The notes under the pieces: generated by a model | Database searches by the model: none | What the model saw: the letters and a program-made list of their open reading frames with translations, nothing else | Told to the model about the DNA's origin: nothing | In this document: piece after piece, positions 12,644 through 63,952 of the stretch | How the letters are laid out: each line of letters begins with the position of its first letter | How positions within the stretch are numbered: position 1 is the first letter of the stretch | Source of the DNA: Podarcis vaucheri | Lineage: Eukaryota | NCBI GenBank assembly: GCA_965113315.1 | Contig: OZ220363.1 | DNA length: 64,000 nt | Direction: 5' to 3' (one strand) | Made by a program: the position numbers and the translations under genes

Positions 12644-15600
12644 GATTCCTGCAGTATCCAAGAGGTTCCTTGCGGATATGTGTCCAGAGATGATCTGGTA
12701 TCCCGGAATCGCTGCAGAAATCAAACCATCCACCACTATCCCTCCCCCACCAAATAGATAGATATATTGAAGAGTCAACAAGCTTTCCGTCCTCCTGAAG
12801 TTGTTGCAGCCAAGCAGGGAATAATGTCAGGATTTGCCTTGGCTTTGTCATAGGTCCCTTTCCAAGAGGCTTGTCCAATCAGCACTTTTCTTGTCACTTA
12901 GAGCCTTTCCCCGTTGCATAATAAAATGCACCATGTCAATTTACATAAACAAACAATCTACAAGCAACAAAGCTTTTTGTGCTGGCATGCAGGAGTGGGG
13001 CTTTCAGCATGTCAGCCTGGCAGTAATAAACAGAGATTGTTGTCCTCGTTGTCATAAATGGCCCTTTGTATGCCAGCCTTGTAACAGGAGTGGCGATTGT
13101 TCTAAATCTTTAATCCACACCAAGTGACTACCTTGAGTCACATTAGCTGTGAGTTAACCAGCTTAACATTCCCAAACAGGTTAAATGTTCTGCGTAAACC
13201 TTGACCCGCTCTTGTTCGGACAAAGAGTCCATTGGAAACTTGTTGAAAGTGGGAGGTGAGGAAGGTAGGATTGCATGCAATTGTGTCACTTTCAGCTATC
13301 CTCCTTCCAGATAGCTCTGTGTTCCATCTGCTGCCATCACACACCCACACCCACACCCACGGGCCCAATTATTTCCATTTTTAACCTGTCCTTGCCCACA
13401 AAAGCTCATAGGTTGTTTTTCTTTTACTGCTTTAAAACAATTGATTTAAATTATATGCTAAAAGGATGGGCACCCAATGCTCCGAAGCAGAGTGATCTTT
13501 TAAGAATGACTTTAAATAAGAACTTTTGTCTGGTCCAGTTTTTCTTACTGGTTCAAGCATCACAGTTTGGCAAACGGCAACTGTCTTTACCATAGGAAGA
13601 GCTCTGGAGGATCAGTCCAAAGCCCAGCCTTTTATTCTCACAATGACCACAGTAATAAATTATTATTAATTTGTACCCAGCCACTCTGGGCAGCTGCCAA
13701 CAGCTATGAAAACATAATAAAACATCAAACATTAAAAACTGCCCTATACAGTAATGAGTGCTATTTTTCTAGAAAAAGAGGTGTCAGAACTCACCATGAA
13801 TGCCTCCCTTGTTCTCTTATGATGAACGCAATGGCGCCCAGTAATGTATACTGCAAACTGTATCTATCCAGGCAAAGCTTGCTACACTCTGCGCATGGAG
13901 GGAGGGGGGGTGTTGTGAGGGGTGAGGGCATTACTAACCAATCTATGTGCCATATGATTCATCTTGTGGGGGCCACAGGAACCCCATGCCAGCCATGGCA
14001 TAATCATCTGAAAATAGTTAATCTCATTTGCCCATGTTTATTTCATGTCCGTCTTTGTTTGTATCCCACTTTTCCTCCCAAAAGAAGCTGGCAATTATGA
14101 AGAAAACAAAATAATGCCAAAACCCAATAAAATTATCAAACAGGACATGAGTCCCAGTGCCTGGCATTAGGAGGCATATGGCCTCTGACTTTGGAGGTAG
14201 AATGCAGCCGTCAAGAGTAGTTGCCTTACCCTCCATGAATTGATATCCTGATATTTGATGGCTTTATCCTCCATAGACTATCCAATCCTCTTTATTTTAT
14301 TTATTTTAATTTCCTTCATTAATTAAATTTCTTTCCCACCCTTCCACCCAAAGGAGTCCAGGGTGGCAAAAGCCATCGTTACATTCTGTGGGTGGAAATT
14401 ACATAGTTTAATTATGTGAAGTTCTTTCTCTTGCCTGTCCTGAATCTTTCAATGTTCAATTTCAGGTTCTACTATTATAAGAGCAGTGCTGGATTAAACC
14501 CTGTGGAGGCCCCTAAGCAGTCAAAATCTTGGAGTGGGGCGGGGCGCCTTGTGTGCACGCTCTAGTAGGATAACATTGAACTAAGAAAGCTTGATAGTAA
14601 TTTACTTCCAGGATCAAATCAATATTATTTTGATCCATTGTTGCAGGCTCCTAAAAGGCATGGGGCCCATAGGCCGCTGCCTGCTCTGCCTATTTGGTAA
14701 TCTGGCACTGTATGAGAGGGAGAAAAACTCTAATCACTTTCTCCATACTGTGCTTAATTTTATATATCTGTATCATGCCCACTATCCGCTCGATTGCCTT
14801 TTTTCCGAACTAAAAAGCCCTAATTGTTGTACCCTTTCCTCACATGAGGGGGAAAAGATGGCTGCCCCCCACAACACCACATGTGAGAAGCCACCTTTTC
14901 CCTGTACTGCCCTTACCAACAACGTTATGTGATCTCATTTCCAGGGACATTTCCAGGCCTGTTTTGCAAGCACATGGCAGTTTTGGTCAACTTTTTAACT
15001 TTAAGGAAGTTAAATAAATAAGAAAATTGTGATTTCAAGCTTCCTGAATCAGCTGTACTACTGAATTCTTCTTGGGGGAACCTGGTAGCACAACTAGTCA
15101 CTGTCCAAAGTGGAGGTTGAATTGAAGTGGCTTGGATTTTCCTTTGTACACAACTTGTCATGCTACAAAGGAAAAACGGATCACCTGATGTCATGGATCA
15201 CCTGATGGTTCAGAGGGGGGCAGGCAGCATATCGAGAAATCTGGGAACCCAGGATCTGACCTGTCAGTCAGATCCAATTCACCCCTGGTTTAGAATCATC
15301 TCATATGACTATAATTTTATGAGAGAAAGCAACAACACCCCAACCATTGACACTACAGAGGTGCAAAAAATATAAATCAGCTTCTAAAAGATCTCATTTG
15401 AATGTTCTCTAATTTAGACCAGTGCACATGGTAGAGCCATATAAGCATAACTCCCTATCTTATGGGCTGCTAGGGTGCAGAGGATTGTTCTTCTTAGCAA
15501 AAACCATGAACAGCACATAATGTGTATAGAAACCCTCATATCCCTGGAACAGAATTGCAAAGCTAGGGAGCAACATACCTACATGCCCTTTCTCAATGGA

Positions 15601-16595
15601 ACATGGTGCTTAGAGGCCCACCACCACCAACCAGTCCCGGTTGGTCTTCAAGATAGAATCCAGAGATATGAAGATCCCAAGATTGGTTTTGTTTTGTTTT
15701 CTACAACTTCCCTAGGAACTTCCCTAGTTTTAGGTGCTGAACAGCAGCTGAAACCCTGTTTTTAATCTGATGCTTCAGGAGTAGTCTGCTTGCTACCAAC
15801 TCCATGTTTATCTGGAAAGATGTCCCACTGAGTTCAGTGGGGGTTATTCCCAATTACATAGGCATAAAATTGTTGCCTAGAAGTTTTCTATCAAATCTGG
15901 AGAGGCTACAAATGGCTATTGGATAGAGTAATCTTGGTCTTGAGGTCTAAGATTAGTAAATCCCCTGCCCCCGCAATTTAAAATTAAGAAATTATCTGAC
16001 CATAGGCAATTTTCACTTCATCTCAGCTTGATTCCTTATTTGCTTGCTTGAGCCAACTATCTATGTTCTGCTGAATGGACTCATTCATCCTTAATATGCA
16101 TCTGGCATGGTGCACCTTTTTTTTTAATAAAAAAAATACTTATTCTTGATCCTGCTTGTGGATGAAATAGGCTAATCTAGTGCGATGCCAGATTTAGAAG
16201 AGTTTGGCCTTAATACATAAGGAGTTGGGGAATATAAAATTCAAGTTCTTTCAACTCTGCAAAGTCTTGTTCTCCTGGCGTTGTGAGAGTTCAGCCTTTC
16301 TCGAGAAGCAGTTGGCCCTTAGAAACCGGGTGGGGGTGGAGAGTCAGATTTAAATAAGCAACAGTACAGAGAATGCAACACATTGCGAGATGAATCAGCA
16401 GCGCTTATTTTATGCTTCCCATGAGACTAATTATCAAACAACTCCAAATATTAATATACAATCATATCCTGCTACCAGTACATTGCCAATGAAGGAGACC
16501 TGGAAGCAGAATCAGTCTGCATGCAGATTACATGGCTACATTAGGAACCATGCATTCAATTTTCATACAATGTGCAATTAAATGAAATGCAGCTA

Positions 16596-16837
16596 CAGTG
16601 GTACCTCGGGTTAAGTACTTAATTCATTCCGGAGGTCTGTTCTTAACCTGAAACTGTTCTTAACCTGAAGCACCACTTTAGCTAATGGGGCCTCCTGCTG
16701 CTGCCGCACCACCGGAGCAAGATTTCTGTTCTTATCCTGAAGCAAAGTTCTTAACCTGAAGCACTGTTTCTGGGTTAGCGGAGTCTGTAACCTGAAGCGT
16801 ATGTAACCTGAAACGTATGTATCCCAAGGCACCACCG
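16596..16837 (+). mobile_element. Tc1/mariner (Tigger-like) MITE
   Basis: TA TSD, TIR cagtggtacctc; related copies at 30193-30431, 56196-56424 and a partial inverted copy at about 17365-17517. Confidence 0.85.
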
Positions 16838-17290: not shown

Positions 17291-18128
17291 TATATGATCT
17301 GTGAACCTATGTACACAAATAGTTTTGTGCAGATTAACAGGTGTACATTCACACAAGCATGTGAACTTTGCTTCAGGTTGAGAACAGAAATCGTGCTCCG
17401 ACAGCCCAGCAGCAGCAGGAGGCCCCATTAGCTAAAGTGGTGCTTCAGGTTAAGAACAGTTTCAGGTAAAGTACGGACCTCTGGAACGAATTAAGTACTT
17501 AACCCGAGGTACCACTGTATATCTGTGGAGTTTAAGAAGCATACATTGTACAAAAGTCAAACAGCATATTTTTTAAGAGAGAAAAACTGCTGGGTTGATG
17601 TGTATATATAGAGAAGCCTTCACTATCTCCTTCACTGGCCCAGCATCTAAAGCCACATAAGACAATAACTTGCTGTTTTATATGGCATCCTTTCTACTAG
17701 GGGCAAAGCATATACTGTACACACTTTTAAATTTTACTTGCTTTTATTTTAACCTTCCTGTTTGGCTCAATTCCAGCACTGGGAAATGGGAGCAAAGCCC
17801 CGGTGGCTTCTGATGGTCCCTCAGCTCACATACTTAAATCAAGAGTTGCCATCACTGTCATAAAGATGAGCTGGGAGGAGGTGACTCATTATCGCTATGG
17901 CTGTTCATGAGAGTCAAATGAGCTGTGAAGGTACAGAATGAGCCAGACTTTTACTTGATAAAAGCAGTCATGATGAGAAGGAAATCCTTTCTCCCCAAGT
18001 AGGGAGAAGCCCTACGTATTCTGCGACCCACATATTCAAGGAACTGCCTATCTCTTTGGCAGCCCATGTGCCTGTTGTGGTCAGAAAATCAGGCCCTGCA
18101 CCATATAACATCCGGATAATAGTATGGC

Positions 18129-30128: not shown

Positions 30129-30192
30129 CTAGGAAAGAGACAGAAGAGAACATGCATTAATTACCTCAAAATGCACAAGCTGGAATAATATA

Positions 30193-30431
30193 CAGTGGTA
30201 CCTCTGTTTATGAACTTGATTCGTTCTGGAGGTTCGTTCTTAACCCGAAACCATTCTTAACCTGAGGCACGCTTTTGCTAATGGGGCCTCCTGCCACCAC
30301 GCCACCAGCATGTGACTTCCACTCGCATCCTGGGGCAAAGTTTGCTACCCGGAACACCTACTTCCAGGTTAGTGGAGCTCGTAACCCAAAGCGTTCATAA
30401 GGAGGACAGTACATAACCCGAGGTTCCATGG
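30193..30431 (+). mobile_element. Tc1/mariner MITE in CYTIP intron 7
   Basis: ta-cagtggtacctc start, degenerate right TIR. Confidence 0.75.
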
Positions 30432-40740: not shown

Positions 40741-40795
40741 CTGAATTTCAAATCCAAATGTTTCATTATCTTCTTTGAAGATTTTAACTGACTTT
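40741..40795 (-). CDS. CYTIP: CYTIP exon 3 (55 nt, start of PDZ domain)
   Basis: AG/GT boundaries; (R)KSVKIFKEDNETFGFEIQ. Confidence 0.95.
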
Positions 40796-42079
40796 CTGCA
40801 GAGAGAGAGAGATACACAGATACACACAAAGTCAATAACCCATTGGAAGGGAATAACGTGTTTAAGGCTTAATTTAGAATAAATGTGCTGTACATCATAA
40901 GCATCAGTAGTTCTTAACAAGTGCTGTGCAATGAAAATCTAAAATCTCCCCACATCTCCAAAGATCATGTGGACAGGATTGTTTGCAGGACGTACATTAT
41001 TGTACACATCACCGAATGGTCACTGTGAGAATGTGGATCGACTGGATGTGTGCAAAGCTGAGCATAAAAGGAAGCAATTGTGCCATTGCCTCTCATCTCC
41101 TGCAGCCAAGGATACTTGAGGAATTCATCTTCTGACCAGATCTGCACATCCCAGATTTAACAAGCAGAACTGTACACAGTTATGCTTCAGATTTCACACT
41201 TCCCTGAATTCTGCGATGCAATTTTCAGCTTCAAAAAAGATGAAGTACTGAAATGCACATAAAAATGTTTAGGATAAAATACATTTTAAAAGGGGGGAAA
41301 TACATTCAAAAATACAAATTTTCATGCAGATTTGATTTTTTTTTTTTTTAAGTAGCAGAAATGGGCATGAATGGACTTCTGCACAAACACATCCCAGAGT
41401 GACATGGATGAGAAACAGACTCATCCATTCATCCTTCCTCCCAGCTCCCAGCTTACCTCCATGTTTTCCAGCATGGCATCATTTCAACCCACTTTTGAGT
41501 TCTGTGCTGGGCATATAGTGAAATGACCGCCTAATTGCTTCACCCTTCACAATACTATATGCATGAATCCTTTCTGTCCCTATATTTGGATTCCCATTTT
41601 GGTTGTGTGGTCTGGGCCACTGAGTGAAAGGAACGTGTCACATATAAAGTGATGTCCCAGTTCCTCTGCACTCTGGCCTTCTGTCTACCCAGTTGGTAGC
41701 ACAGGGGAAATGACCAGCCGTGTACTGGAGAAATGATTTCAAATCCATTCCCAATATCATTGTTGTCAAAAGAAAGTATATACCACCTTTCATTTCAAGA
41801 AGAAATACAAAGGTGGTTAACTCTCTAATGATACTCTGCCACACTGCAATATGTAATGGTGGTTACATTAGCTACTGGCTTTAGGGATGGGCTGCGGGTA
41901 TGCATTGCTCAGTCTTTCCACAACTCTCCAGCCCACGGATTTCATTGTAGTTATTTGTTTTTTCACACTTTCATCTTCCTCTTTCAGTATCTGCCTTGGG
42001 CCTCTACACACAATTATTGCATTTCTAGTAGCAGTGTAATGAACTAATATTTAGAGAGAGAAAGCAATGCCTTTATTAC

Positions 42080-42129
42080 CTTTGAGGGCCAAGAGAGTCA
42101 CCTGAAGAGATTGTCCTACTTAAAGCAAG
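42080..42129 (-). CDS. CYTIP: CYTIP exon 2 (50 nt)
   Basis: AG/GT boundaries; LALSRTISSGDSLGPQ(R), similar to human LALTRSSSLSDFSWSQR. Confidence 0.9.
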
Positions 42130-42239
42130 CTGGAAGCAGAAGAGACAAGGGAGGGTGTTGCATTAGAAATTCATTTGTGTCTAGAAAACAAAATGCTAGA
42201 TGAAAGCTTTACATATGCAAAACTGCCAATGAGAATTAT

Positions 42240-42447
42240 TTACAGATAGGTAGCCGTGTTGGTCTGCCATAGTCAAAATAAAAAAATTCCTTCCAGTAGC
42301 ACCTTAAAGACCAACTAAGTTAGTTCTTGGTATGAGCTTTCGTGTGCATGCACATGTGTATCTGAAGAAGTGTGCATGCACACGAAAGCTCATACCAAGA
42401 ACTAACTTAGTTGGTCTTTAAGGTGCTACTGGAAGGAATTTTTTTAT
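42240..42447. mobile_element. Tiny palindromic Penelope-like (Neptune-type) pseudo-LTR insertion in CYTIP intron 1
   Basis: 77-bp inverted arms 42278-42354 / 42371-42447; 12-bp TSD aatgagaattat (42228-42239, 42448-42459); contains a hammerhead core. Confidence 0.85.
42358..42395 (+). ncRNA. Minimal type I hammerhead ribozyme motif
   Basis: GTAT-CTGAAGA-A-GTGTGCATGCACAC-GAAA-GC-TC-ATAC: helix I GTAT/ATAC, hairpin II, core GAAA, palindromic AGCT helix III, cleavage predicted after 42391. Confidence 0.8.
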
Positions 42448-44028
42448 AATGAGAATTATGATCGTATAAGGTCCACCTGGTCCAAGGTCCTTTGCACAGG
42501 GCCAAGCAGGTGACTCCAAAAGTTCAAATTCAGGGCATGGTGAAGATGGTTACACCCTCTTGATTTCCCCCAGCTTAGGAACACACAAACGTTAAAAATG
42601 GCCCTCCTGGATCAAAGGCCCATCTGCATTCTAAACCCTACAGTGGTCAACCAGCTATTTCCAGGAATCCCTCAAGTGGGGCAAAAAGGAAATATCCCTT
42701 CTCTCCTGGTTGCTCACCAGCAGGTGGTGTTGGGTGGCATCCTGACTCTGGTTCAAGCACATATCATGGCTACTAGCTGTTGATAAAGGCATCTCTCCAA
42801 AGAGTGCTGGCCCTACCATTAGGCAGAGTGAAGCTGCTGCCCCAGGCAACTGATTTTGGGTGTCATAAAAGTGAATAAATTGTAAGTCGTGGGTTGCCTT
42901 TCAGTTGTGACTCTTCACTAACAGAAGTGGCTGTGCTTGCTCAAGGCAGGGCACTGGATTTTCAAAGAGTCCTCCTACCCAGTACAGCTCTTCCTGTTTT
43001 GCAGTATCTGCTTCTGAAGAATAGCGGACCCTCTGAAACAGAATGGGGTATGCCATAGAGGGTGCTATTGGTAGAAGGGATCAAGGGAAAATGGGGTGTC
43101 TCGTCTTGTGCTAGTGAAAGTGTACTGCTAGGGCAAAGGCACCATTTGATACAACATCAACAACAACAACAACGCGTTTACTTCCAGGGAAGGGGGAAAG
43201 GAGCTTATGGGATTTTCTTCCTCAGGTGCCAAAATAACTTGACTGGCTTTGGGTAATGTGCCAAAATACCTAGGGCCAGCCCTGACTCGGAGGCACCAAC
43301 AACCCAGTCATCACCATTGCCTGAAGTTAAATGATTTACACTTGAGGGAACAAATTTCAGCTCCCAAAAGTGGAAAGCAAGAGCCTCTCTTGATTAAAAA
43401 TATAATCCATCTCAGCACATTTGTCAACTGAGAGCAGTCCTTAGTCAATTTAGCAAGCAGCCAAGGAACTTATTGACAGAGGTGGCTTGAACAGTGAATT
43501 GATCTTGTGCCCAAAGCCCATGCCTATGGTTTCTTTCAAGATTTAACCACAGCACAGCACAAGCAAGCACTTCAGACCATGCCTGGCCACAATCCCTTTG
43601 AATCAACTGGGATTGCCTGTGCCAATCCTAGTTCCTGCTTCTGTGCCCAGGGCCTGAGGAGAAACGCCACATGGCAGCCTCCTTTCCAAGTCAACCTCCT
43701 TTCCTAATATTAGTACTCAAGTTGTTTTGGCATCCAAGGAAGAAAATCTTACAAGCACCTCTCCCACACAGTAGAATTAAAAAGATAACCCTTTGTTTCC
43801 TAGTCGCAAAGCTCCAAATCAGCTGGCTGAGCCTCTGGGGCAGCTGCCTCCCCCTGCCTAATGGGCAGACCAGCCCTAAAACAGTAGTCTAAGACATGGA
43901 AATTGAACAGGTGTAGATTTCTGTGGCACAGAGAAATGGTGGGAAAGCCTCACCTGCTAAATTTCTGTGATTCAGGTGGATACAGCATCTAGGACTGTTA
44001 AAAGATTGCAACTCTAAAAGTGATAGAC

Positions 44029-44165
44029 CAGGTACCCCCAAACTCAGCCCTCCAGCTGTTTTGGGACTACAACTCCCATCATCCCTAGCTAACAGGACCC
44101 AGTGGTCAGGAATGATGGGGATTGTAGTCCCAAAACAGCTGGTGGGCCGAGTTTGGGGATGCCTG
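44029..44165. mobile_element. Short palindromic hAT MITE (about 136 bp)
   Basis: Near-perfect internal palindrome; TSD tgatagac/caatagac. Confidence 0.85.
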
Positions 44166-44642: not shown

Positions 44643-44801
44643 CTGCTTGTAGTCCCTAGACAACGTGTCTATTGAATTTGTGAATGCCTGGCTTCTTTTG
44701 TTGTCCAGTGGTGGGTTACCAATTGGATCCAAGTATGGGGTGTAAACTGAGCCCACACAGTTGGCGTTGTGGTTCTGGTGAATGAGCCTCTTTAAGGACA
44801 T
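44643..44801 (-). CDS. CYTIP: CYTIP exon 1 (coding part, 159 nt)
   Basis: ATG at 44801, MSLKRLIHQN...DTLSRDYKQ then donor gtatgt; joined CDS 1065 nt = 354 aa + stop. Confidence 0.92.
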
Positions 44802-48446: not shown

Positions 48447-50519
48447 ATGTAAACCAGTCAATGGAAGTGATGAAGCTAACTAGATAAAATGGTTTTGCTA
48501 ACCACCCCTCCTTTTTTTAAATGGGCTCCACCATGGCTCCGCTTGCTTTACTTGCATTTTCAAAGTAAAATTGTTAAAACTACTCCACGGACATGGAGCG
48601 GGAAGGGGAGAAGACACGTGCAACTTGTCCACTGCTTATATCATGGGCACTCTTCAGTAGGTGCTCATAACTGCTCAGCACTCATAACACCATTCTTTTG
48701 AATTGTTTGAAATCACGGGCCAACCATTCACGTCTGCCTGGAAAAATGATACAGCAGTTGTTGGCCAAGGTATCCACACTCATTTTTATCTGTTTTCCCT
48801 TTCAACTCTGATCATAAAGCCTGCTTTACTGGAAACTAGACTGCGACAAAAGAAACGAATATGTACACCATGATCGATGGCGTTTCTATCTTGCCACTTT
48901 GGGCTCTCTTAAAGACTATAGCGTGACTTCATTTATTTATTGAATTTGTAGACTGCCCTTCATCCGTAGATCTCAGGGTTGTCTTCTACCTCCAGCGGTT
49001 TGGTACTGGTACAAGAATCACAGCCCAGCAGGAAAAGGCAGGAGGCAGGAATTGCAGTAAAGCAAAGCCCACCCCAAGCTGGGTCATTTCAGGAACACCA
49101 GGGAAGTTTAGCTTCCTTGTAGAGCTTTCTATCTGCTCAGATGCATTGCACACATTTGTTTTTCCTTGCCAGCACACGTCCTCATTCTCCGCTGCCACCA
49201 TGGGCCTAACAAGCCAAGGATGCTCAACTCTCACACATCCACCTCACTCTCCATCAATTCCCCTCTCTTTTGTTCCGTTTCCTATCCCCCTGCCTTGATT
49301 CCAGTCTCTTTTATTTTTCTTCCATCCCGCTCTGTTATTTATAGCTCAGGGCTAAGGACATGTCTCGCAGCCTGGCAGATCAATCACTGTAGCAAAGCAG
49401 AGATCAATGAACAGATGGATCTGGCTTGAAAGCTACCTGGCTGTTTGCAGTTGGAAAGAGGCTCTAAGTAAGCTGCAAGCAACCTTTTTTATTATTTAAA
49501 AGGTGGTGGGAAAATCCAGTTCCATGTAAGATGAATACTAGCTCTAACTTTCACCCCAACCCTGCCCCACTTTATCTGAGGGCTGCCTTTCAAAAACAAA
49601 TTTAGTCAGTCTCTCTCTCTCTCTTAATAGAAATTAATCAGGCAGTTTCTCAGAAGTGTTCCATTTATTAGGGGTCGTTTGAACCACTCTCTATTACCCC
49701 TATTACTAGGTGCATGTGATCATAGTTGGGGGGAGAAACACAGCAGTTATTGTAGGATGAAAGTGAACCATCTGCTTGTCACTGCTTGTTTTCTGCTGAA
49801 CACAAACTAGGTGGTTCCTCTAGGAACGGCATCATCTCATCACTTGCTTAAGTGATATGACTAATGTCTCCAGTGACTCTCTTCCTCTTTTCTTCCTTTA
49901 TTATGCATTGCTTTGTTGTGTGTTGCAGAAAACGATAAATGTGCATCCCTATGTCTTAAATATTATATGGGTCTCCCGCCTTTTTTCTTTTCTTTTGGAA
50001 ACAAAACAAAACAGGAGAAAGCTACGCTTAAGAGGCACCATCAGCAAATATATCTGCTTGCGAAGTAAAAAAGATCTGTAGATAATAATTCTGCTTTAAC
50101 ACGACTAAGTTTTTTAAAAAGTTAACCAAACGTTAATGAATTGATTTAGTTACTTATTATATAGCTGCTGCATAAGAGGAGTTTTCTAGGAGATTCAAAA
50201 GGCAAAAAACAAAAAAGCCATTAACAATGCAATTTAGAACACCAAAAGCTTATCACAATTAAAAACTAAAACAAAATTTAAAACGGAAAGGAGCTGGGAA
50301 GAAACCACATTCTAGACACCTCTCATGTGGCTTACAATGTTACTAGAGTTACTGCAGAGCTCCCATACCACTAAGATAGCCTCCCCAGTCTGCTACCCTG
50401 CCACATGTTGGACTACAACTCCCATCATTCCTGGCTGCTGGCCTTGCTGGCTGGGGTTGATGGGAGTTGTAGTCCATCAGCTGCTGGAGGGCACCATGTT
50501 TGGGAAGGTCGCACTAAGG

Positions 50520-50655
50520 CAGGCATCCCCAAACTCGGCCCTCCAGATGTTTTGAGACTACAACTCCCATCATCCCTAGCTAACAAGACCAGTGGTCAGG
50601 GATGATGGGAATTGTAGTCCCAAAACAGCTGGAGGGTCGAGTTTGGGGGTGCTTG
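50520..50655. mobile_element. Short palindromic hAT MITE
   Basis: Same family; perfect TSD cactaagg. Confidence 0.88.
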
Positions 50656-51588
50656 CACTAAGGAAATGCCTTAAAGCAAACTTAGAAGTATATTTATTTG
50701 GACATGGATGTTCCATTTAGTTGTCATGGCAAATAGCAATTGATGGACCTGCCCTGGATGAGTATCACTAATAGACTTTTTTAAAAGAAAAAAGAAAAGG
50801 CGTTTCAGCTATAGTCCATCATCAGATCATGCAGTAGTGAAGCATGTTGGTTTACTGTGCACACTTCCCTTTTTTTGCTGATGGAGTTAATCAACTTTAC
50901 CAGATGACTTCAAATTCTGAGTTTATTTTGTAACATTTTAATGGCTCTTCTGCTGTTAAAAGGGGGGCACTCAGGGTACTCAAAGTGAGGTACAAATCGA
51001 TTTAAAAGAAGAAGAAGAAGCCCCCCAAAATAAAGACACTAAAAATGGCAAAATAATACATTCCATTTTGAAAAGAATTGTTAAAGTATTCAGCACATGA
51101 ACTCTCCTGGCAGGGTGGCCTGCTTGCAAAGGTGTTGTTGGACTCCCATCAGCTCTAACCAGCATGACCAATGGTCAAGGATGATGGGAGTTGTAGTCTA
51201 ACAACCTATAGTGAGCCACATGTGAGCTACCCCTACAATAGAGCAGATATTTACTGTGTATATACTGAGGGAAAGAGAGTGGAAATTCTCCCTACTTGCT
51301 GGAAAGGGGGTCAAAGCTTATTAAACTGTTTTTAAAACCATGTCTTAGCATTATGTGTGAGCCGGGTCACTATGTGATGTTAGAAGCGTTGCGTTTTTTT
51401 GAACCCCATCACTCTGAACTTGTTTGCACTGGCTCTCACGTGCTATTCTGCTGCCCACTCATTCAGTTTGGAGAGGTCCCTTTTTAAAAAGTTCTACACA
51501 CGCTCCCTGAAATGTCATCATACTGAGTAATTTGGTGTCATCTGCAGTCATGACTCTTTGTGAGCTCATGTGATAAAGCTGACTGCCC

Positions 51589-53212: not shown

Positions 53213-54561
53213 AAAGCACTTTGCATAACAAAAGCTCAGCGCTTTTTAAGTGCCATGATATGCCAGGTATGTCAACACAGATAGTACGATTGCTATTTTT
53301 TTAAAAAAAAACCAGAAATGTTAAATAATGGCCACTTCACAACATCAACTCTTGCCAAATATCATAGGTAAACCTCAAGGTCACACTTCTGCTCAGGCCT
53401 GTTCTTGACACTGTGTCTTATTTACACCTTTAGAGGGTGGAAAGTTAGGCAGTTGCACTGTTCACACTTTTAAGTGACATTCTGAACAGTCTTCACTTCT
53501 CTCTGTTGTAGGAAGCTCAGGGTGGGGTGGCGCCATTTTGCCTTCACCACAACAGTGTGGTGGACCATAAATGGAGCCGAGAAGGACCAACTGCCATTGG
53601 TTCTCCTTCAGACTTGTCTCCTGCGGATAAAATGACATAACCCAGGGCTACCCAGTATTCTGCGCCCTCCCCAGTGTGGTAAACTGCAACTCCTGCCATC
53701 TCTAAGCAACCTGGCCCAATGACCAAGGATGATGGGAGTTGCAGTTGACAACATCTGGGGGCACCCTGTTGGGTACCCCCGGCAGACCACGCTCTGAGCT
53801 TCTTAAAATGGAGATAAGAAATGGAAGAAGCAGCATTGAGAGTGTTAACATCATCATGAGTATTTCCCATTTCTAATTCAGGGATGACGCAGTTGTGGCC
53901 CTCCAGATATTGGACTACAACTCCTATCAGACAGCGATTAGGGGTAATGGGAGCTGTAGTTCAACAGCATTTGGAAAGCCACAGGATCTTCAACCCTGTT
54001 CTAGCTGAAGGTGCCAAATATCCTCTTCTCTTTTTTCTAGCTGTGAAACTCTTTCCTGCTTCTGTGAAACAAATAAAGCAAGGGTGACCCTGCAATATAT
54101 CAGTTCTACTAAGCAGGAGGCTACAATATCATTTAAGTGTCTTTACATTAAGCACCTTTAATTAGCTTTCTGATTGGGCACGCATTGTGGTTTGTTCTCT
54201 TCGGCTTTTGAAAACAAACCTTGTTTCTCAATAATCTGTGCAACTGTTACTCAATGTGTACCTCTCTTCCTACTGAAGCCTGCAGAGAAGCCACAATAAA
54301 CTTGCAACACAGACGTAACATCATGCACCAGAATGACTCCGCTGAGTCGATGACTTAGTGACTCAGCAAGGAAAGTTCACTGCAGGACAAATGGGTAGGA
54401 ACCATAAAGAAGTATAGCGGGAATGGATCTGTGGCACTCGCAGCCAGGGGGAGTGGGGAATGGATAATCACAACCCTAGGGAGCCGCCGTTTGTCCACAG
54501 ACAGCTTTTCAGGTCATGTGGCCAGCATGACTAAACCGCTTCTGACAGTGTTGGACTAGGA

Positions 54562-54697
54562 TAGGCATGGCCAAACTTGGCCCTCCAGATGTTTTGTGAC
54601 TACAGTTCCCATCATCCCTGACCACTGGTCCTGTTAGCTAGGGGTAATAGGAGTTGTAGTCCCAAAACATTTGGAGGGCCAAGTTTGGCCATGCCTG
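54562..54697. mobile_element. Short palindromic hAT MITE; older relatives near 4237, 5627, 29467, 31975, 50380, 51110, 53640 and 53878
   Basis: Same family; perfect TSD gactagga; shared core actacaactcccatc ... gatgggagttgtagt. Confidence 0.88.
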
Positions 54698-55076
54698 GAC
54701 TAGGACATGAGATACCAGGGTTCAGAAACCTTAGCTGTGTGCACTGTGTACCCTCAAAGCACATTGTTTCCCGCAAAGAATTCTGGGGAATGTAGTTCAC
54801 CTCTCATCGTTACAATTCCCAGCAACCTTTAAGTGGAATACAGTGCCCAGAATTATTTGAGAGGAAAGAGTGTGCTTTGAGTGTGCCGCCACTAAACTAA
54901 TCTGGGAATATCCATCTGTGCATGAATATGGCACTTTGTTTAATAAAGATTAAAAGCCAGACTCTCCCAAACTGTTAGTCAAACCCTCCTCACAGTAGAC
55001 CTTCCATTCAACTAATTAAACTAAATGTTTTAAAGAGGTTTCTATTGTTTCTATTGTTTTGTTAGTTGCTACCCTG

Positions 55077-55431: not shown

Positions 55432-56195
55432 AACCAATTAAACAATCATTTGTTGTAGGTCGCACTGCAGTAGTCCAAGTGGGAGATAACTAGAGCAGAA
55501 AGGTGTCTATCCCCTGCCCTCTAGTCTGGAGGTGATGTCATCAAGATATTTGTTTCTAAATATCTAGTTACCATGTCCATTTTCTTCAAAGATAGATATT
55601 GTATGAGTAAATACCTGAGCTTTATGTTGTGTGCCCCCCGCCCCCATTCACATGAAGGGTGGGATGGGTTTAGATATAAACAATCAATAAATCAGTTCTG
55701 AGTTGCACCATAATTGTCCAGCCTTAGGTGGCTGTGCTGGTGGCTGTGCCTTCCCCAACTGTCGACTGTGGCTCCACACCACCTGTGAGGTCAGAAAAGG
55801 ACATGGCGGGGGCTGAGGGAGAACAGACCCACCCACTTTGACATCACTGGGCAGTGGGCTCTGTGTAAGTCTCCGGTTTGGGCCCTGAAATCTTAGGGTG
55901 TGGGGTGCTCCTGACCTGGCAACACTGCTGCTAAGGAACTGCTAGAGAATTTCTCCTCCGTCCCCTGCCTAGAACCAGAGCTGATAATTTCGAAAGTTTC
56001 TTTGCACCTTTGCTCTCCTTAAGATTCTTGTATTTGCTTTTCACATTGTCGTTATTTGATACATGGTGGTAAACTAGCTAGCTAGCTAGCTAAATAAAAT
56101 CACCCCCTGAAATCATTGAACAATGAAAGCAACTATGCATTGTTTTTTTAAAAAATAAAATAAATCTAAAGCATAGAATGTTTCATTCAGAATTA

Positions 56196-56424
56196 CAGTG
56201 GTACCTCAGGTTAAGCACTTAATTTGTTCTGGAGGCCCGTATTTAACCTGAAACTGTTCTTAACCTAAAGCACCACTTTAGCTAATGGGGCCTCCTGCTG
56301 TTGCTGCGCCGCCGGAGCACAATTTCTGTTCTCATCCTGAAGCAAAGTTCTTAACCTGAAGCACTATTTCTGGGTTACCTAAAGCGAATGTAACCTGAAG
56401 CATATGTAACCTGAGGTACCACTG
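56196..56424 (+). mobile_element. Tc1/mariner MITE
   Basis: TA TSD; TIR cagtggtacctcaggtta / taacctgaggtaccactg. Confidence 0.88.
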
Positions 56425-56488: not shown

Positions 56489-57621
56489 TGCTCTCACCAT
56501 AAGAAAAGCTGCTGTTTGCTCTCCATGCTAATTTATTATTGGATTTCAGAGAGACAGAGAGAAAGAGTGCGCACAAAGTAGAGCTCTGATGCTATGAGGC
56601 TTATCCTGGGACTCTCAGCTTTATTTATTCTCTTCAAAATAAATAGTTTACTCTGCTTAGGAAAGCATCTCAGTATGAATATAAACTGGCGGATGTACGA
56701 AACGTTTTAAACAGCTGCAAGTTCTAGTTGACCTTACAGGTGATAAATTGTCTGTTTCAGCCTATACTGTAGTTATGTGACCTGATGGCAAATTTCACTT
56801 TGTAATCATGTGTCTCTAATGCAGTTTGTAAAGGCTGCTGTTGAAGTGGTGCAAATGTGCTTTAATATTTATGGTGCGGATGTGACCTTGGTTCTGCCTA
56901 TCTTGGGAGAAGGAAGCTGTGTGAAGAAGATGGAGCATATTGGGCCAGAACACATGGAAAGGAGAGAGAGAGAGACCCGTTCGTTTCTTACCCCACTCCC
57001 CCTAATTAATGGGTGATAGAAGGGGGAGGCAGTAGTTAAAATAAAGAAGCGTCCACCTTCTCAGCCACAACAAAGGTTTCTATCCTCACCTGCATGACAG
57101 GCAGATAACACACTGCAGAGTGCCATCTCTAGGCACTAACACATCACCATCAAGACCTTTCTCCTAAATGTTTAGGCATTCATTGAAATCTCCACCCATT
57201 GATTCTAACACCGTCCCCCTGGAACAACAGAGAGGAAGTCCACTCCATTCTTCTGTGTTGACAGCTCTCGGTGGTGGCTGGTGGCTAGTGGGGCAGAAAG
57301 CTAGTAGACCAACAGTAGGCAGAGCCAATGAAGGCAGGCAGGTAGGGAAAGGGCTCCAACTGAAGGCAGGCTGTGGTTGAGGAGCAGTGTCCCATTTGTC
57401 TTAATGGACCAGCCTCCGCTGACAGTTCTTCAGATAGTTGTCTCCTCCTTAACCTTGTCTTCCCCACCCCAGGCTAAATATATTTAGCTCTTTCAACTTT
57501 TCCTCTGAGGATGTGGTTCCTTCCTTCCTTCCTTCCTTCCTTCCTTCTTTTCTTCTTTTGTATTTTCCAAAACAGGAACACAAACCATAGTTAAGCTCCC
57601 CATTCCTCTGTCCCACTTAGA

Positions 57622-57852
57622 ACTTCGTACCATTTATTTATTTATTTATTTACAGCTATTAGCCCATAAAATATATACAAGCCTTTACAAACTGCATTAG
57701 AGACACATGATTACAAAGTGAAATTTACCATCAGGTCACATAACTACAGTATAGGCTGAAACAGACAATTTATCACCTGTAAGGTCAACTAGAACTTGCA
57801 GCTGTTTAAAACGTTTCGTACATCTGCCAGTTTATATTCATACTTCGTACCA
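57622..57852 (-). mobile_element. Insertion of a LINE-like 3' tip with (TAAA)5 tail plus a 165-bp inverted copy of 56672-56836, bounded by an 11-bp TSD
   Basis: TSD acttcgtacca at 57622-57632 and 57842-57852; copy differs from donor at 2 positions. Confidence 0.85.

Positions 57853-62011: not shown

Positions 62012-62057
<46 letters not shown>
62012..62057. repeat. (AT)n microsatellite flanking the Penelope element; partner tract at 63890-63946
   Basis: Direct reading. Confidence 0.95.
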
Positions 62058-62063
<6 letters not shown>

Positions 62064-62226
62064 AGGGGTGTGGTGTATAGCCTCCAACGTTCTGGGCAGA
62101 GAGGAAGTTCCTAGATTAGTGTGCCTTTTCTTCTTTTGTTCCTTAATTACTTGAGGGATATCTTGGGTGATTTCATGAGTGATATTCTGAATACCACTGG
62201 GTGGGTCATTAAGTGTAGATTAGTTG

Positions 62227-63393
62227 CTAAAGCTTTCGTGTCTTGACCTCTTGAGCTTGTGAAGAGTTTTTCTGAGAAGATGGCTGTGCTGCATTTAGTT
62301 GTGCTCTGGCTTGGCTTCGTGTATAGGGGCGAGCTGTGGTTTTGTGCCTTGTGCCAGCCAGATCTGTGTAGGGATTGCAGGGGGGTGCAGCATCCGGAGG
62401 TGCCACTATAGTTTGGCTACTGGATGGAGTCTGTAATATGTCTGTGGAGAGGGTCTGGGTTTGGGTCTGGTGTGGTTGATTGGTGACGGCGTTCTGTGTG
62501 CCTCTGGTTCTGGTGTCGGTTTTTGTGGGGAGGGCTAATTTCCAGATGTCTGGCAGGCGGGACGTGTCGTCACGCTTGTTCATGTTGTGAGGGTGTTTCT
62601 CTATCTCGATGGCTTCCATGATTATTCTCTTGTGGTGATGTTCCATGTTAAAGAGCAATTTGGAATCTGCAAAATTAATTTCGTGTCCTGTTTCTTTCAT
62701 GTGTTGGAAAAGAGAGGAAGTTTTTTCTTCTTTTTTGACGGCATTCTTGTGTTCTGCGATACGTGCATTTATTCGTCTGTTTGTTTGTCCAATGTACGTG
62801 GCTGGGCAGACTTTGCAGGGTATTTCATAGACCCCTTGGTTTTCCAGCTGGATTTTGTCTTTTGGATTTCTGAGGATATTGGCTATTTTTTGGTTGGTGC
62901 AGAAGGCTGTTTTGATATTGTGTTTATGGAGGATTTTGCTGATTTTGTCTGTAGTGCCCTTGATATAAGGAAGGAGGGCCATGCCATTGTTTTCTTCTGT
63001 GTCTTGGTTTTTGGGGGGTGTTTCTTTTTGGATTAGCTTCGTAACCCTGTTTTTCTGGTATCCATTGGCGATTAACACATTTGAGAGATTCTGTAACTCA
63101 GTTGTCAAGTGGTCTTTGTCAGCCAGGCGTTTGGTTCTGGAGATGAGAGTCTTGGCTACGGAGTTTATTTGTGCAGGGTGGTGGTGTGATTGTGCATGTA
63201 AGTAGCGGTTGGTGTGTGTTTTTTTCCGGTAGATAGTGTGTCCTAGGGAGCCATCAGGTTTTTTGTAGATTAGGACGTCAAGAAAGGGGAGTTGGTTGTT
63301 GTCTTCTATTTCCATAGTGAATTGTATTTTGGGGTGTAGGCTGTTGAGATGTGTGAGGAAGCTATCTAGTTTTTCTTTCCCGTGTGGCCAAAT
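62227..63393 (-). pseudogene. Penelope-like ORF remnant: RT end/thumb + GIY-YIG endonuclease, stop-free but truncated just after the expected catalytic Y-x-D-D motif
   Basis: IWPHG...IQFTMEIE...LPFLDVLI...YRKKTHTNRYL...GVYEIPCKVCPATYIGQT...RIAEH...MEAIEI...NMN. Confidence 0.9.
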
Positions 63394-63769
63394 TACACAG
63401 ATCTGGCTGGCACAAGGCACAAAACCACAGCTCGCCCCTATACACGAAGCCAAGCCAGAGCACAACTAAATGCAGCACAGCCATCTTCTCAGAAAAACTC
63501 TTCACAAGCTCAAGAGGTCAAGACACGAAAGCTTTAGCAACTAATCTACACTTAATGACCCACCCAGTGGTATTCAGAATATCACTCATGAAATCACCCA
63601 AGATATCCCTCAAGTAATTAAGGAACAAAAGAAGAAAAGGCACACTAATCTAGGAACTTCCTCTCTGCCCAGAACGTTGGAGGCTATACACCACACCCCT
63701 CAACAGTATTTATAGGAACTCAAACACCAGATTCTGCTCTGTTCCAGTAACAAGAAGCCGAAAGCACCA

Positions 63770-63807
63770 GCCTGAAGATGACGAGTGAGACCTCGTCGAA
63801 ACGTCGC
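63770..63807 (+). ncRNA. Minimal type I hammerhead ribozyme motif in the Penelope pseudo-LTR
   Basis: CTGAAGA (63772-63778), stem II GACGAG/CTCGTC, GAAA, CG, TC cleavage site; helix I only about 2 bp in this copy. Confidence 0.65.
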
Positions 63808-63887
63808 ACAGACACCCCGACTCTTACACGGGAAGACACCCGAAGACACCAAAACCTGCATTCCTGTACCCGTGAAAATCTACGAAA

Positions 63888-63952
<65 letters not shown>

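Follow-up and report, generated by a model that had tools for sequence, protein, structure and literature searches.

In Penelope-like elements (PLEs), an inverted, 5'-truncated copy lies beside the 5' end, and a tail of 30-40 bp is often present at one end only (PMC8557442). Head-to-head pLTRs, TSDs of 8-10 bp, a tail on one of the inverted pLTRs and palindromes at the junctions have also been described, and TATA and initiator motifs were found in the pLTR (PMC3846280). The minimal hammerhead of PLEs comprises a CUGANGA/GAAA/UH core, a helix I of 4-5 bp, an extra base 9/10.1, a G10.1-C11.1 pair and palindromic positions 15.2-16.2 (PMC4209133). Such hammerheads in turtle and snakes are mostly single motifs of truncated PLEs, and some motif pairs lie on opposite strands, 100-700 bp apart; the one motif that was tested was inactive as a monomer, and its activity as a dimer was low (PMC4209133). 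In D. virilis Penelope, the 5' end of helix I marks where an intron terminates (PMC4209133; PMC2377424).

The protein of the anole PLE cuts and extends both target strands and prefers ATT, two internal start sites bound the tail, and cleavage by the ribozyme, which cuts only together with the protein, is dispensable (PMC11167929). Lizard Penelope has already been reported to be massively edited (PMC5625713), and a bias of Neptune elements toward microsatellite targets has been hypothesised (PMC8557442).

Here, we analysed a 64,000-nucleotide stretch of Podarcis vaucheri DNA (contig OZ220363.1; hereafter, the window), in which a 208-bp insert lies in intron 1 of CYTIP. It is highly probable that these 208 bp are two 5'-truncated ends of a high-copy, likely Penelope-like family arranged head to head, and that the palindrome formed by them arose at the insertion site. 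The head-to-head truncated layout as such is already published for PLEs. The features of the locus are as follows.

42228..42239, no strand: left copy of the TSD, 12 bp, AT-rich, containing ATT; present as a single copy in the empty site of run X10
42240..42277, minus strand: 38-nt PLE tail, the 3' end of copy A; none on the other side
42278..42354, minus strand: body of copy A (left arm), the 3' end of the element, 5'-truncated within hammerhead stem II
42351..42358, no strand: 8-nt perfect palindrome CACATGTG, whose centre is the head-to-head junction 42354/42355
42355..42447, plus strand: copy B (16-nt spacer and right arm), starting at the common family 5' start and ending without a tail
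42358..42395, plus strand: minimal type I hammerhead motif, with predicted cleavage after C42391
42448..42459, no strand: right copy of the TSD, from the sequence and the empty-site comparison
44643..44801, minus strand: CYTIP coding exon 1, from likeness to human CYTIP, splice signals and phase
42080..42129, minus strand: CYTIP coding exon 2 (50 nt), on the same grounds
40741..40795, minus strand: CYTIP coding exon 3

Overall structure of the insertion

A preliminary description of this DNA had given the insert a 12-bp TSD, a 38-nt terminus, 77-bp arms and a 16-nt spacer, all of which are exact in the sequence. The two TSD copies (AATGAGAATTAT, 42228-42239 and 42448-42459) are identical at 12/12 positions, a match whose composition-based chance is approximately 4e-6 (25 placements). 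The two arms, at 42278-42354 and 42371-42447, are reverse complements of each other with 0/77 differences; together with the spacer (42355-42370) and the one-sided terminus (42240-42277), they make up the whole insert of 208 bp. Copy A (115 nt) and copy B (93 nt) point away from each other, and both reach past the predicted cut at 42391. Copy A lacks the CUGANGA core because its 5' truncation lies inside stem II. The description of the insertion as non-coding is likewise supported. Within the window, BLAST found no second copy of the 208-bp element, and the best match was a 24-27-nt stretch at 82% (13384-13410). The insertion target is non-repetitive AT-rich DNA with no microsatellite, an observation which, coming from a single locus, weighs weakly against a Neptune origin.

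Four of the five features tested for a truncated canonical PLE insertion are present, namely, a terminal-repeat hammerhead, a one-sided tail of 30-40 bp, an inverted truncated copy, and an AT-rich TSD of 8-12 bp with an empty site. In fact, the insert resembles canonical EN+ PLEs (PMC8557442 Fig. 2; PMC3846280) in its head-to-head copy, one-sided tail, AT-rich TSD of ~10 bp, junction palindrome and terminal-repeat hammerhead, but its two copies are reduced to ~100 nt, and no ORF is left. No matching pLTR was found in the searched supplements of PMC4209133 and PMC8557442. The Penelope-like origin suggested in the preliminary description is supported by the head-to-head layout, the one-sided tail and the minimal hammerhead. 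Pattern scans of viral and metagenome contigs for a parent ORF, expected to encode a telomerase-like RT and a GIY-YIG endonuclease, gave 0 matches (4/4 scans), and membership in the PLEs therefore rests on the layout and the ribozyme. The Neptune clade is recognised from such an ORF, by a Cys linker that separates the RT from the endonuclease and by RT phylogeny.

MITEs have terminal inverted repeats at both extreme ends and a short fixed TSD. This class was rejected for the insert, since a 38-nt tail lies outside the left arm, the TSD is 12 bp, and the family members are mostly single-armed. A miRNA gene was also rejected; Rfam gave only unspecific miRNA hairpin models, all under the gathering score.

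Several other repeats were observed in the window. Three related MITE-like palindromic repeats are located at 44029-44165, 50519-50656 and 54556-54703, with arms of 58-64 nt and spacers of 20-21 nt. A repeat beginning TACAGTGGTACCTC occurs at 16594-16777, 17363-17525, 30191-30270 and 56188-56377 with ~84-91% identity; two of its copies are inverted 612 nt apart, and it resembles a DNA transposon end. In addition, a 165-nt segment (56672-56836) is duplicated in inverted orientation, 843 nt apart, at 57635-57844 with 98.8% identity, and the latter copy, with ~45 additional nt that terminate in (TAAA)n and a 10-bp direct repeat on its two sides, resembles a local retroposed copy.

Empty and probably filled sites in related lizards

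Four of the 24 listed public runs were compared with positions 41980-42700: the DNA runs X1 (organism A), X4 (organism C) and X10 (organism E) and the RNA run X23 (organism E). The preliminary description had proposed looking for the empty site in related lizards, and in an X10 contig (record 9), 42227 joins 42448 gaplessly, with 248 letters of sequence on one side, 253 on the other and one 12-mer. This clean empty site fits the TSD and confirms a true insertion with target duplication. In X4, unique flank contigs enter the element by 25 letters on both sides, and in X1, a unique left-flank contig enters it by 21 letters; since these entries are under the bridging threshold of 31 letters for a filled call, the site is only likely to be filled in X4 and X1. 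The X1 depth in the bin 42180-42204 is the sum of three contigs (93.2 + 32.8 + 91.5 = 217.5), and 54 unlisted letters of the X1 right-flank contig fit 42176-42227 exactly, from which X1 appears to hold both alleles. An assembly artefact was rejected because X4 contigs contain both junctions, X1 contains the left one, and the empty site matches the TSD. The insertion is probably young.

The minimal hammerhead motif

Helix I of the motif is formed by GTAT (42358-42361) and ATAC (42392-42395); between them lie the core CTGAAGA (42362-42368), an extra A (42369), stem II (42370-42383), which is a perfect 14-nt palindrome, GAAA (42384-42387), GC, and TC (42390-42391). A purpose-built minimal-hammerhead descriptor matched 1 site in 64 kb, which is this one, and 0 sites in 200 dinucleotide shuffles, while the bare CTGANGA...GAAA pattern is at chance level (9 found vs 6.6 expected in the window). 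With its pairing parts found and the descriptor hit standing at 1 vs 0, the complete minimal type I hammerhead reported earlier for the plus strand holds. By sequence comparison, the motif satisfies the structural definition of the minimal type I hammerhead in PMC4209133. It shares with the minimal hammerheads of metazoan PLEs (PMC4209133) the 4-bp helix I, the extra base before stem II, the G10.1-C11.1 pair and the palindromic 15.2-16.2 without loop 3, but differs from them in that the opposite copy of the insert has no core and stem II of the motif is a perfect 14-nt palindrome. A check with hammerhead models, which had also been proposed, did not return the motif: the Rfam hammerhead models gave no score for 42358-42395, nor for a motif at 63772.

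The 77-bp hairpin was predicted to be far more stable than the ribozyme fold (-148.6 vs -6.0 kcal/mol), in agreement with the earlier proposal that the hairpin would sequester the ribozyme. In the predicted dimer, the hammerhead motif pairs through stem II, not through helix III. A pile-up of read ends at the predicted cut site was looked for in one RNA run, a fragmented library and hence a weak test, and none was found. The core residue G42384 is an A in 13-20% of the family DNA depth, as expected of unselected CpG decay.

Location in CYTIP and orientation of the ribozyme

The location in CYTIP intron 1 given in the preliminary description was confirmed, in that exons 1 and 2 flank the insert on the minus strand. 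We take these exons to be those of CYTIP from their likeness to the human gene, together with splice signals and phase. The best solved-structure match of two host-gene exons is the CYTIP PDZ chain 2z17 (E 2.6e-9 and 1e-3), and the last CYTIP exon gave no useful match in the ESM Atlas. The insert ends 98 nt before the acceptor of exon 2.

The earlier reading missed two points. One is the minus-strand orientation of CYTIP, by which the host pre-mRNA contains the complete ribozyme in antisense; the other is that the 38-nt terminus represents the known tail of PLEs. The CYTIP-transcribed strand contains no CTGANGA within the insert; consequently, the ribozyme cannot cut CYTIP pre-mRNA. This pre-mRNA strand would form the same 77-bp hairpin, for which the predicted fold shows no pairing with the acceptor region, and the hairpin in intron 1 would be an ADAR substrate. 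The ribozyme is probably a passenger: the CYTIP pre-mRNA strand does not contain it, and on the other strand it is locked in the hairpin and has no promoter-like sequence upstream.

A role of the hairpin or the ribozyme in the control of CYTIP splicing or editing might be considered, given that, on the transcribed strand, the perfect 77-bp hairpin precedes the exon 2 acceptor by ~150 nt and that the RNA of the element family is edited (see below). However, run X10 lacks the insert, as does, according to the depth arithmetic, one allele in X1; the acceptor region is left unpaired with the hairpin in the predicted fold; the transcribed strand is without the ribozyme core; and none of the RNA reads of X23 come from the CYTIP insert locus, the run having given no reads on the insert flanks or on exon 2. 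A host role is thus extremely improbable.

Family-level pattern and alternative origins

The family is of very high copy number, and 18245, 9933 and 8030 contigs from the three DNA runs were aligned to the insert and its flanks (41980-42700). Joints (best 15 of 232) and loose ends (best 30 of 783), both ranked by support, were measured against a reference whose own copy B starts at 42355, and de Bruijn-graph contigs handle palindromes and dense repeats poorly. Among these joints, the left arm is exited at 12 distinct breakpoints (42282-42332; 1-4 contigs each), and re-entry is at 42355-42359 in 13 of the 15. Among these loose ends, those at 42240, which is the tail end, are represented by 67-93 contigs in each of the three DNA runs, the flanks being unrelated; those at 42358, also with unrelated flanks, amount to 65, 63 and 55 contigs (agreement 0.35-0.38); and a longer upstream body continues at 42356 in 37-63 contigs per DNA run and 283 RNA reads (agreement 0.92). 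In the same set, loose ends at the tail-less end 42280 were found in one of the three DNA runs, X10. The family has two alternative 3' ends (42240 with the tail and 42280 without it), and its common 5' start, to which the loose ends at 42358 correspond, is located at the helix I foot.

The depth at the junction base 42354 is 0.41, 0.24 and 0.49% of that at 42384 in the three DNA runs. In all three runs, the stretch 42292-42398 is spanned by contigs that have 9-11 differences and 1-4 gaps, an extra C at 42354 is found in 7-9 contigs per run, and the spanning contigs listed have depths of 11-56 vs 6-93 for the flanks. Summed over contigs, the depth at the junction exceeds that of the flanks by a factor of 236-523, a sum of this kind being no measure of copy number. 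Since similar stem II junctions recur across runs, a minor palindromic subfamily may exist.

These data bear on the retrozyme-like unit that the preliminary description had envisaged, that is, a non-autonomous family in which the palindrome itself is transcribed and re-inserted as a whole. Its clean TSD and empty site would fit such a family, as would the similar-junction contigs in all three DNA runs, including X10 with its empty locus, the junction depth several hundred times that of the flanks, and the precedent of non-autonomous HHR-bearing PLE derivatives (PMC7229834; bioRxiv 10.64898/2026.07.22.740005). On the other hand, the junction depth is just 0.2-0.5% of the arm depth, the listed spanning contigs differ by 9-11 positions plus gaps at flank-like depths (11-56 vs 6-93), the breakpoints are scattered (best 15 of 232 joints), and 7 of ~600 RNA reads cover 42354-42356; there is also a single ribozyme with no head-to-tail repeat, and the transcript would be the -148.6 kcal/mol hairpin. 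We therefore regard this explanation as very improbable, and the palindrome was likely not copied from a palindromic master. Of the earlier proposal, a dominant recurring unit was not supported, whereas a similar layout does recur in tens of contigs. The preliminary description had also held that copies all differing in their breakpoints would be one-off inversion products rather than a family; this applies to the 12 distinct left breakpoints (best 15 of 232 joints) but not to the right one, which is common (13/15 at 42355-42359).

In general, the insert resembles non-LTR retrozymes (PMC7229834; bioRxiv 10.64898/2026.07.22.740005) in being non-coding and PLE-derived and in having a type I hammerhead and a TSD >4 bp. 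However, non-LTR retrozymes are head-to-tail 150-450-bp repeats with at least two, mostly canonical, ribozymes and circular RNAs, whereas the insert is head to head and has one minimal ribozyme. With this single ribozyme in an inverted arrangement, the insert was rejected as a tandem non-LTR retrozyme, and the lack of a head-to-tail ribozyme pair also speaks against the retrozyme-like unit that had been raised conditionally earlier.

A 36-residue frame starting at the loop II ATG, with a stop read as X, gave 5 protein matches, none of which is an RT; 3 are spurious ORFs from other family copies (P0032-P0034), and 2 are chance hits. P0032 reads as a head-to-head copy, in which the left copy is ~33 codons longer and the right start is nearly the same, and P0033 and P0034 begin near the right-copy start behind unrelated sequence. 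Public protein collections thus contain spurious ORFs translated from copies of the repeat in the insert. The mirror frame from the loop II ATG (42376-42349) has one stop, at a family-polymorphic position.

Upstream of the common start, the consensus contains a TATA-like ATATAGAAG ~30 nt before the start and an initiator-like TCAGT at the start. The same upstream letters can be read as a 3' splice site (pyrimidine tract and CAG). Shared upstream exon letters were found in none of the best 12 of 179 inserts, and a transcription start is therefore favoured over a splice site.

A related alternative is that the ~130-nt ribozyme-plus-tail monomer, from 42358 to the tail, is a SINE-like family with a short master, that its start may be a 3' splice site, and that the palindrome is a side product. 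The 55-65 contigs per DNA run that begin at 42358 with unrelated flanks would agree with this, and P0033 and P0034 also start there behind unrelated sequence; the upstream letters allow the splice-site reading, and the 5' end of helix I is where the intron of D. virilis Penelope stops (PMC4209133). However, the best 12 of 179 inserts share no upstream exon letters, the starts scatter over 42355-42359, and copies with a longer body are common (37-63 contigs per run among those listed, and 283 RNA reads). Moreover, the monomer does not include the TATA-like motif and would thus be without a promoter once inserted. A SINE-like monomer family is thus unlikely, and two truncated ends of a larger Penelope-like element remain the preferred reading.

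Editing of the family RNA

Run X23, of which ~12% was read, gave 1408 family reads, all from other loci. Changes of A>G were present at 26 places and of T>C at 27, vs 2-7 for the other kinds. Among the best 40 of 115 entries, 14 A>G or T>C entries inside the element were examined, with two 7-read junction entries and the flank entries excluded. Ten of the 14 are at <1% in all three DNA runs but at 17-42% in one mate direction vs 0-7% in the other (Fisher p <= 9e-5), the DNA and RNA coming from different individuals and the strandedness being taken from the pattern itself. None of these ten has G as the 5' neighbour, and two of them are mirror images of one position; the remaining 4 are DNA polymorphisms. 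The mirror positions of the core residues A42386 and A42387 are changed in 21 and 24% of sense reads, respectively. The changes in the family RNA thus have the pattern of A-to-I editing, which affects both strands and, in the core, two adenosines. This strand-linked A-to-G change is shared with hyper-edited lizard Penelope, and, like the palindromic frog Harbinger (PMC5625713), the ~200-bp self-folding repeat needs no partner copy; in contrast to frog Harbinger (PMC5625713), the palindrome of the insert was likely made copy by copy at integration and is not fixed in the family consensus.

Proposed mechanism of integration

That many copies have their start at the helix I foot, preceded by TATA- and initiator-like motifs, suggests run-off copying to the RNA 5' end, primed at both target ends. 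A two-primer, run-off model of integration may be put forward on this basis, in which we place even confidence and doubt. First, the RT-GIY-YIG protein of an autonomous parent would make a cut with a 12-nt stagger in the AT-rich target, and the two target ends would then both prime cDNA synthesis, with the first ~130 nt of a single element RNA as template. The cDNA of copy B (93 nt) would start at the tail-less site and run off at the RNA 5' end, and that of copy A (115 nt) would start at the tail end and stop early in the stem II hairpin. Finally, the two cDNA ends would be joined at the 8-nt palindrome. The template RNA would be uncleaved, since copies A and B both extend upstream of the cut site 42391; insertion of ribozyme-cleaved RNA was rejected, as both copies run past this position. 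A two-primer, run-off model for PLEs was not found stated in the literature searched, subscription papers being outside its coverage.

The inverted copy could instead have been produced by fold-back self-priming, on cDNA or antisense RNA, rather than by priming at the two target ends. The perfect 8-nt palindrome at the junction and the identical arms are compatible with this, short palindromic fillers occur at other junctions (best 12 of 179 inserts), and self-priming on an antisense template is favoured for PLEs in PMC3846280. However, the tail is on copy A only and the 16 nt are on copy B only, so neither copy is a simple fold-back of the other, and extension of both strands was shown in vitro (PMC11167929). 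Self-priming therefore appears doubtful, though it deserves consideration beside two-end priming.

With Poseidon PAc of Anolis carolinensis (PMC11167929), the insert shares two 3' ends bounding the tail, an ATT target and an uncleaved RNA template. The distance from the start of stem II to the tail end is 116 nt in the insert vs 111-118 in PAc (PMC11167929). A closer parallel to Poseidon PAc is the second PLE of the window (62050-63890), with its ATG inside the hammerhead core.

This second PLE is a different element, located within a TA microsatellite and built on the same head-to-head plan at a scale of 1.8 kb. Its inverted arms (62050-62370 and 63394-63714) have 2 mismatches in 321, and the 3' end is complete on one side only. 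The open frame 62227-63465 (minus strand) encodes the RT end and a GIY-YIG domain with no Cys linker, and the protein is 96% identical to a Podarcis muralis record. In its hammerhead core (63772-63801), helix I has just 2 bp, and an ATG within this core begins a frame of 38 codons that extends to the end of the element, as in the anole element (PMC11167929).

Implications

Taken alone, the locus represents a young retroelement insertion of an ordinary kind, usable as a presence/absence marker among related lizards. At the level of the family, head-to-head hairpins offer a structural explanation of why lizard Penelope RNA is, as published, heavily A-to-I edited.

Tentatively, a broader picture may be drawn, in which lacertid genomes would hold thousands of 'strong-stop'-like Penelope insertions: the RNA would start at the hammerhead foot, a dimeric enzyme would prime both ends on the cap-proximal ~130 nt, and the resulting identical-arm hairpins would feed ADAR, the ribozyme core being edited as well. 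The fixed 5' start, the two 3' ends and the scattered inversion points can discriminate between two-end priming and self-priming in PLEs, and if the above picture is true, the 'strong-stop' family would be a natural data set for an in vivo test of the mechanism of PLE integration.
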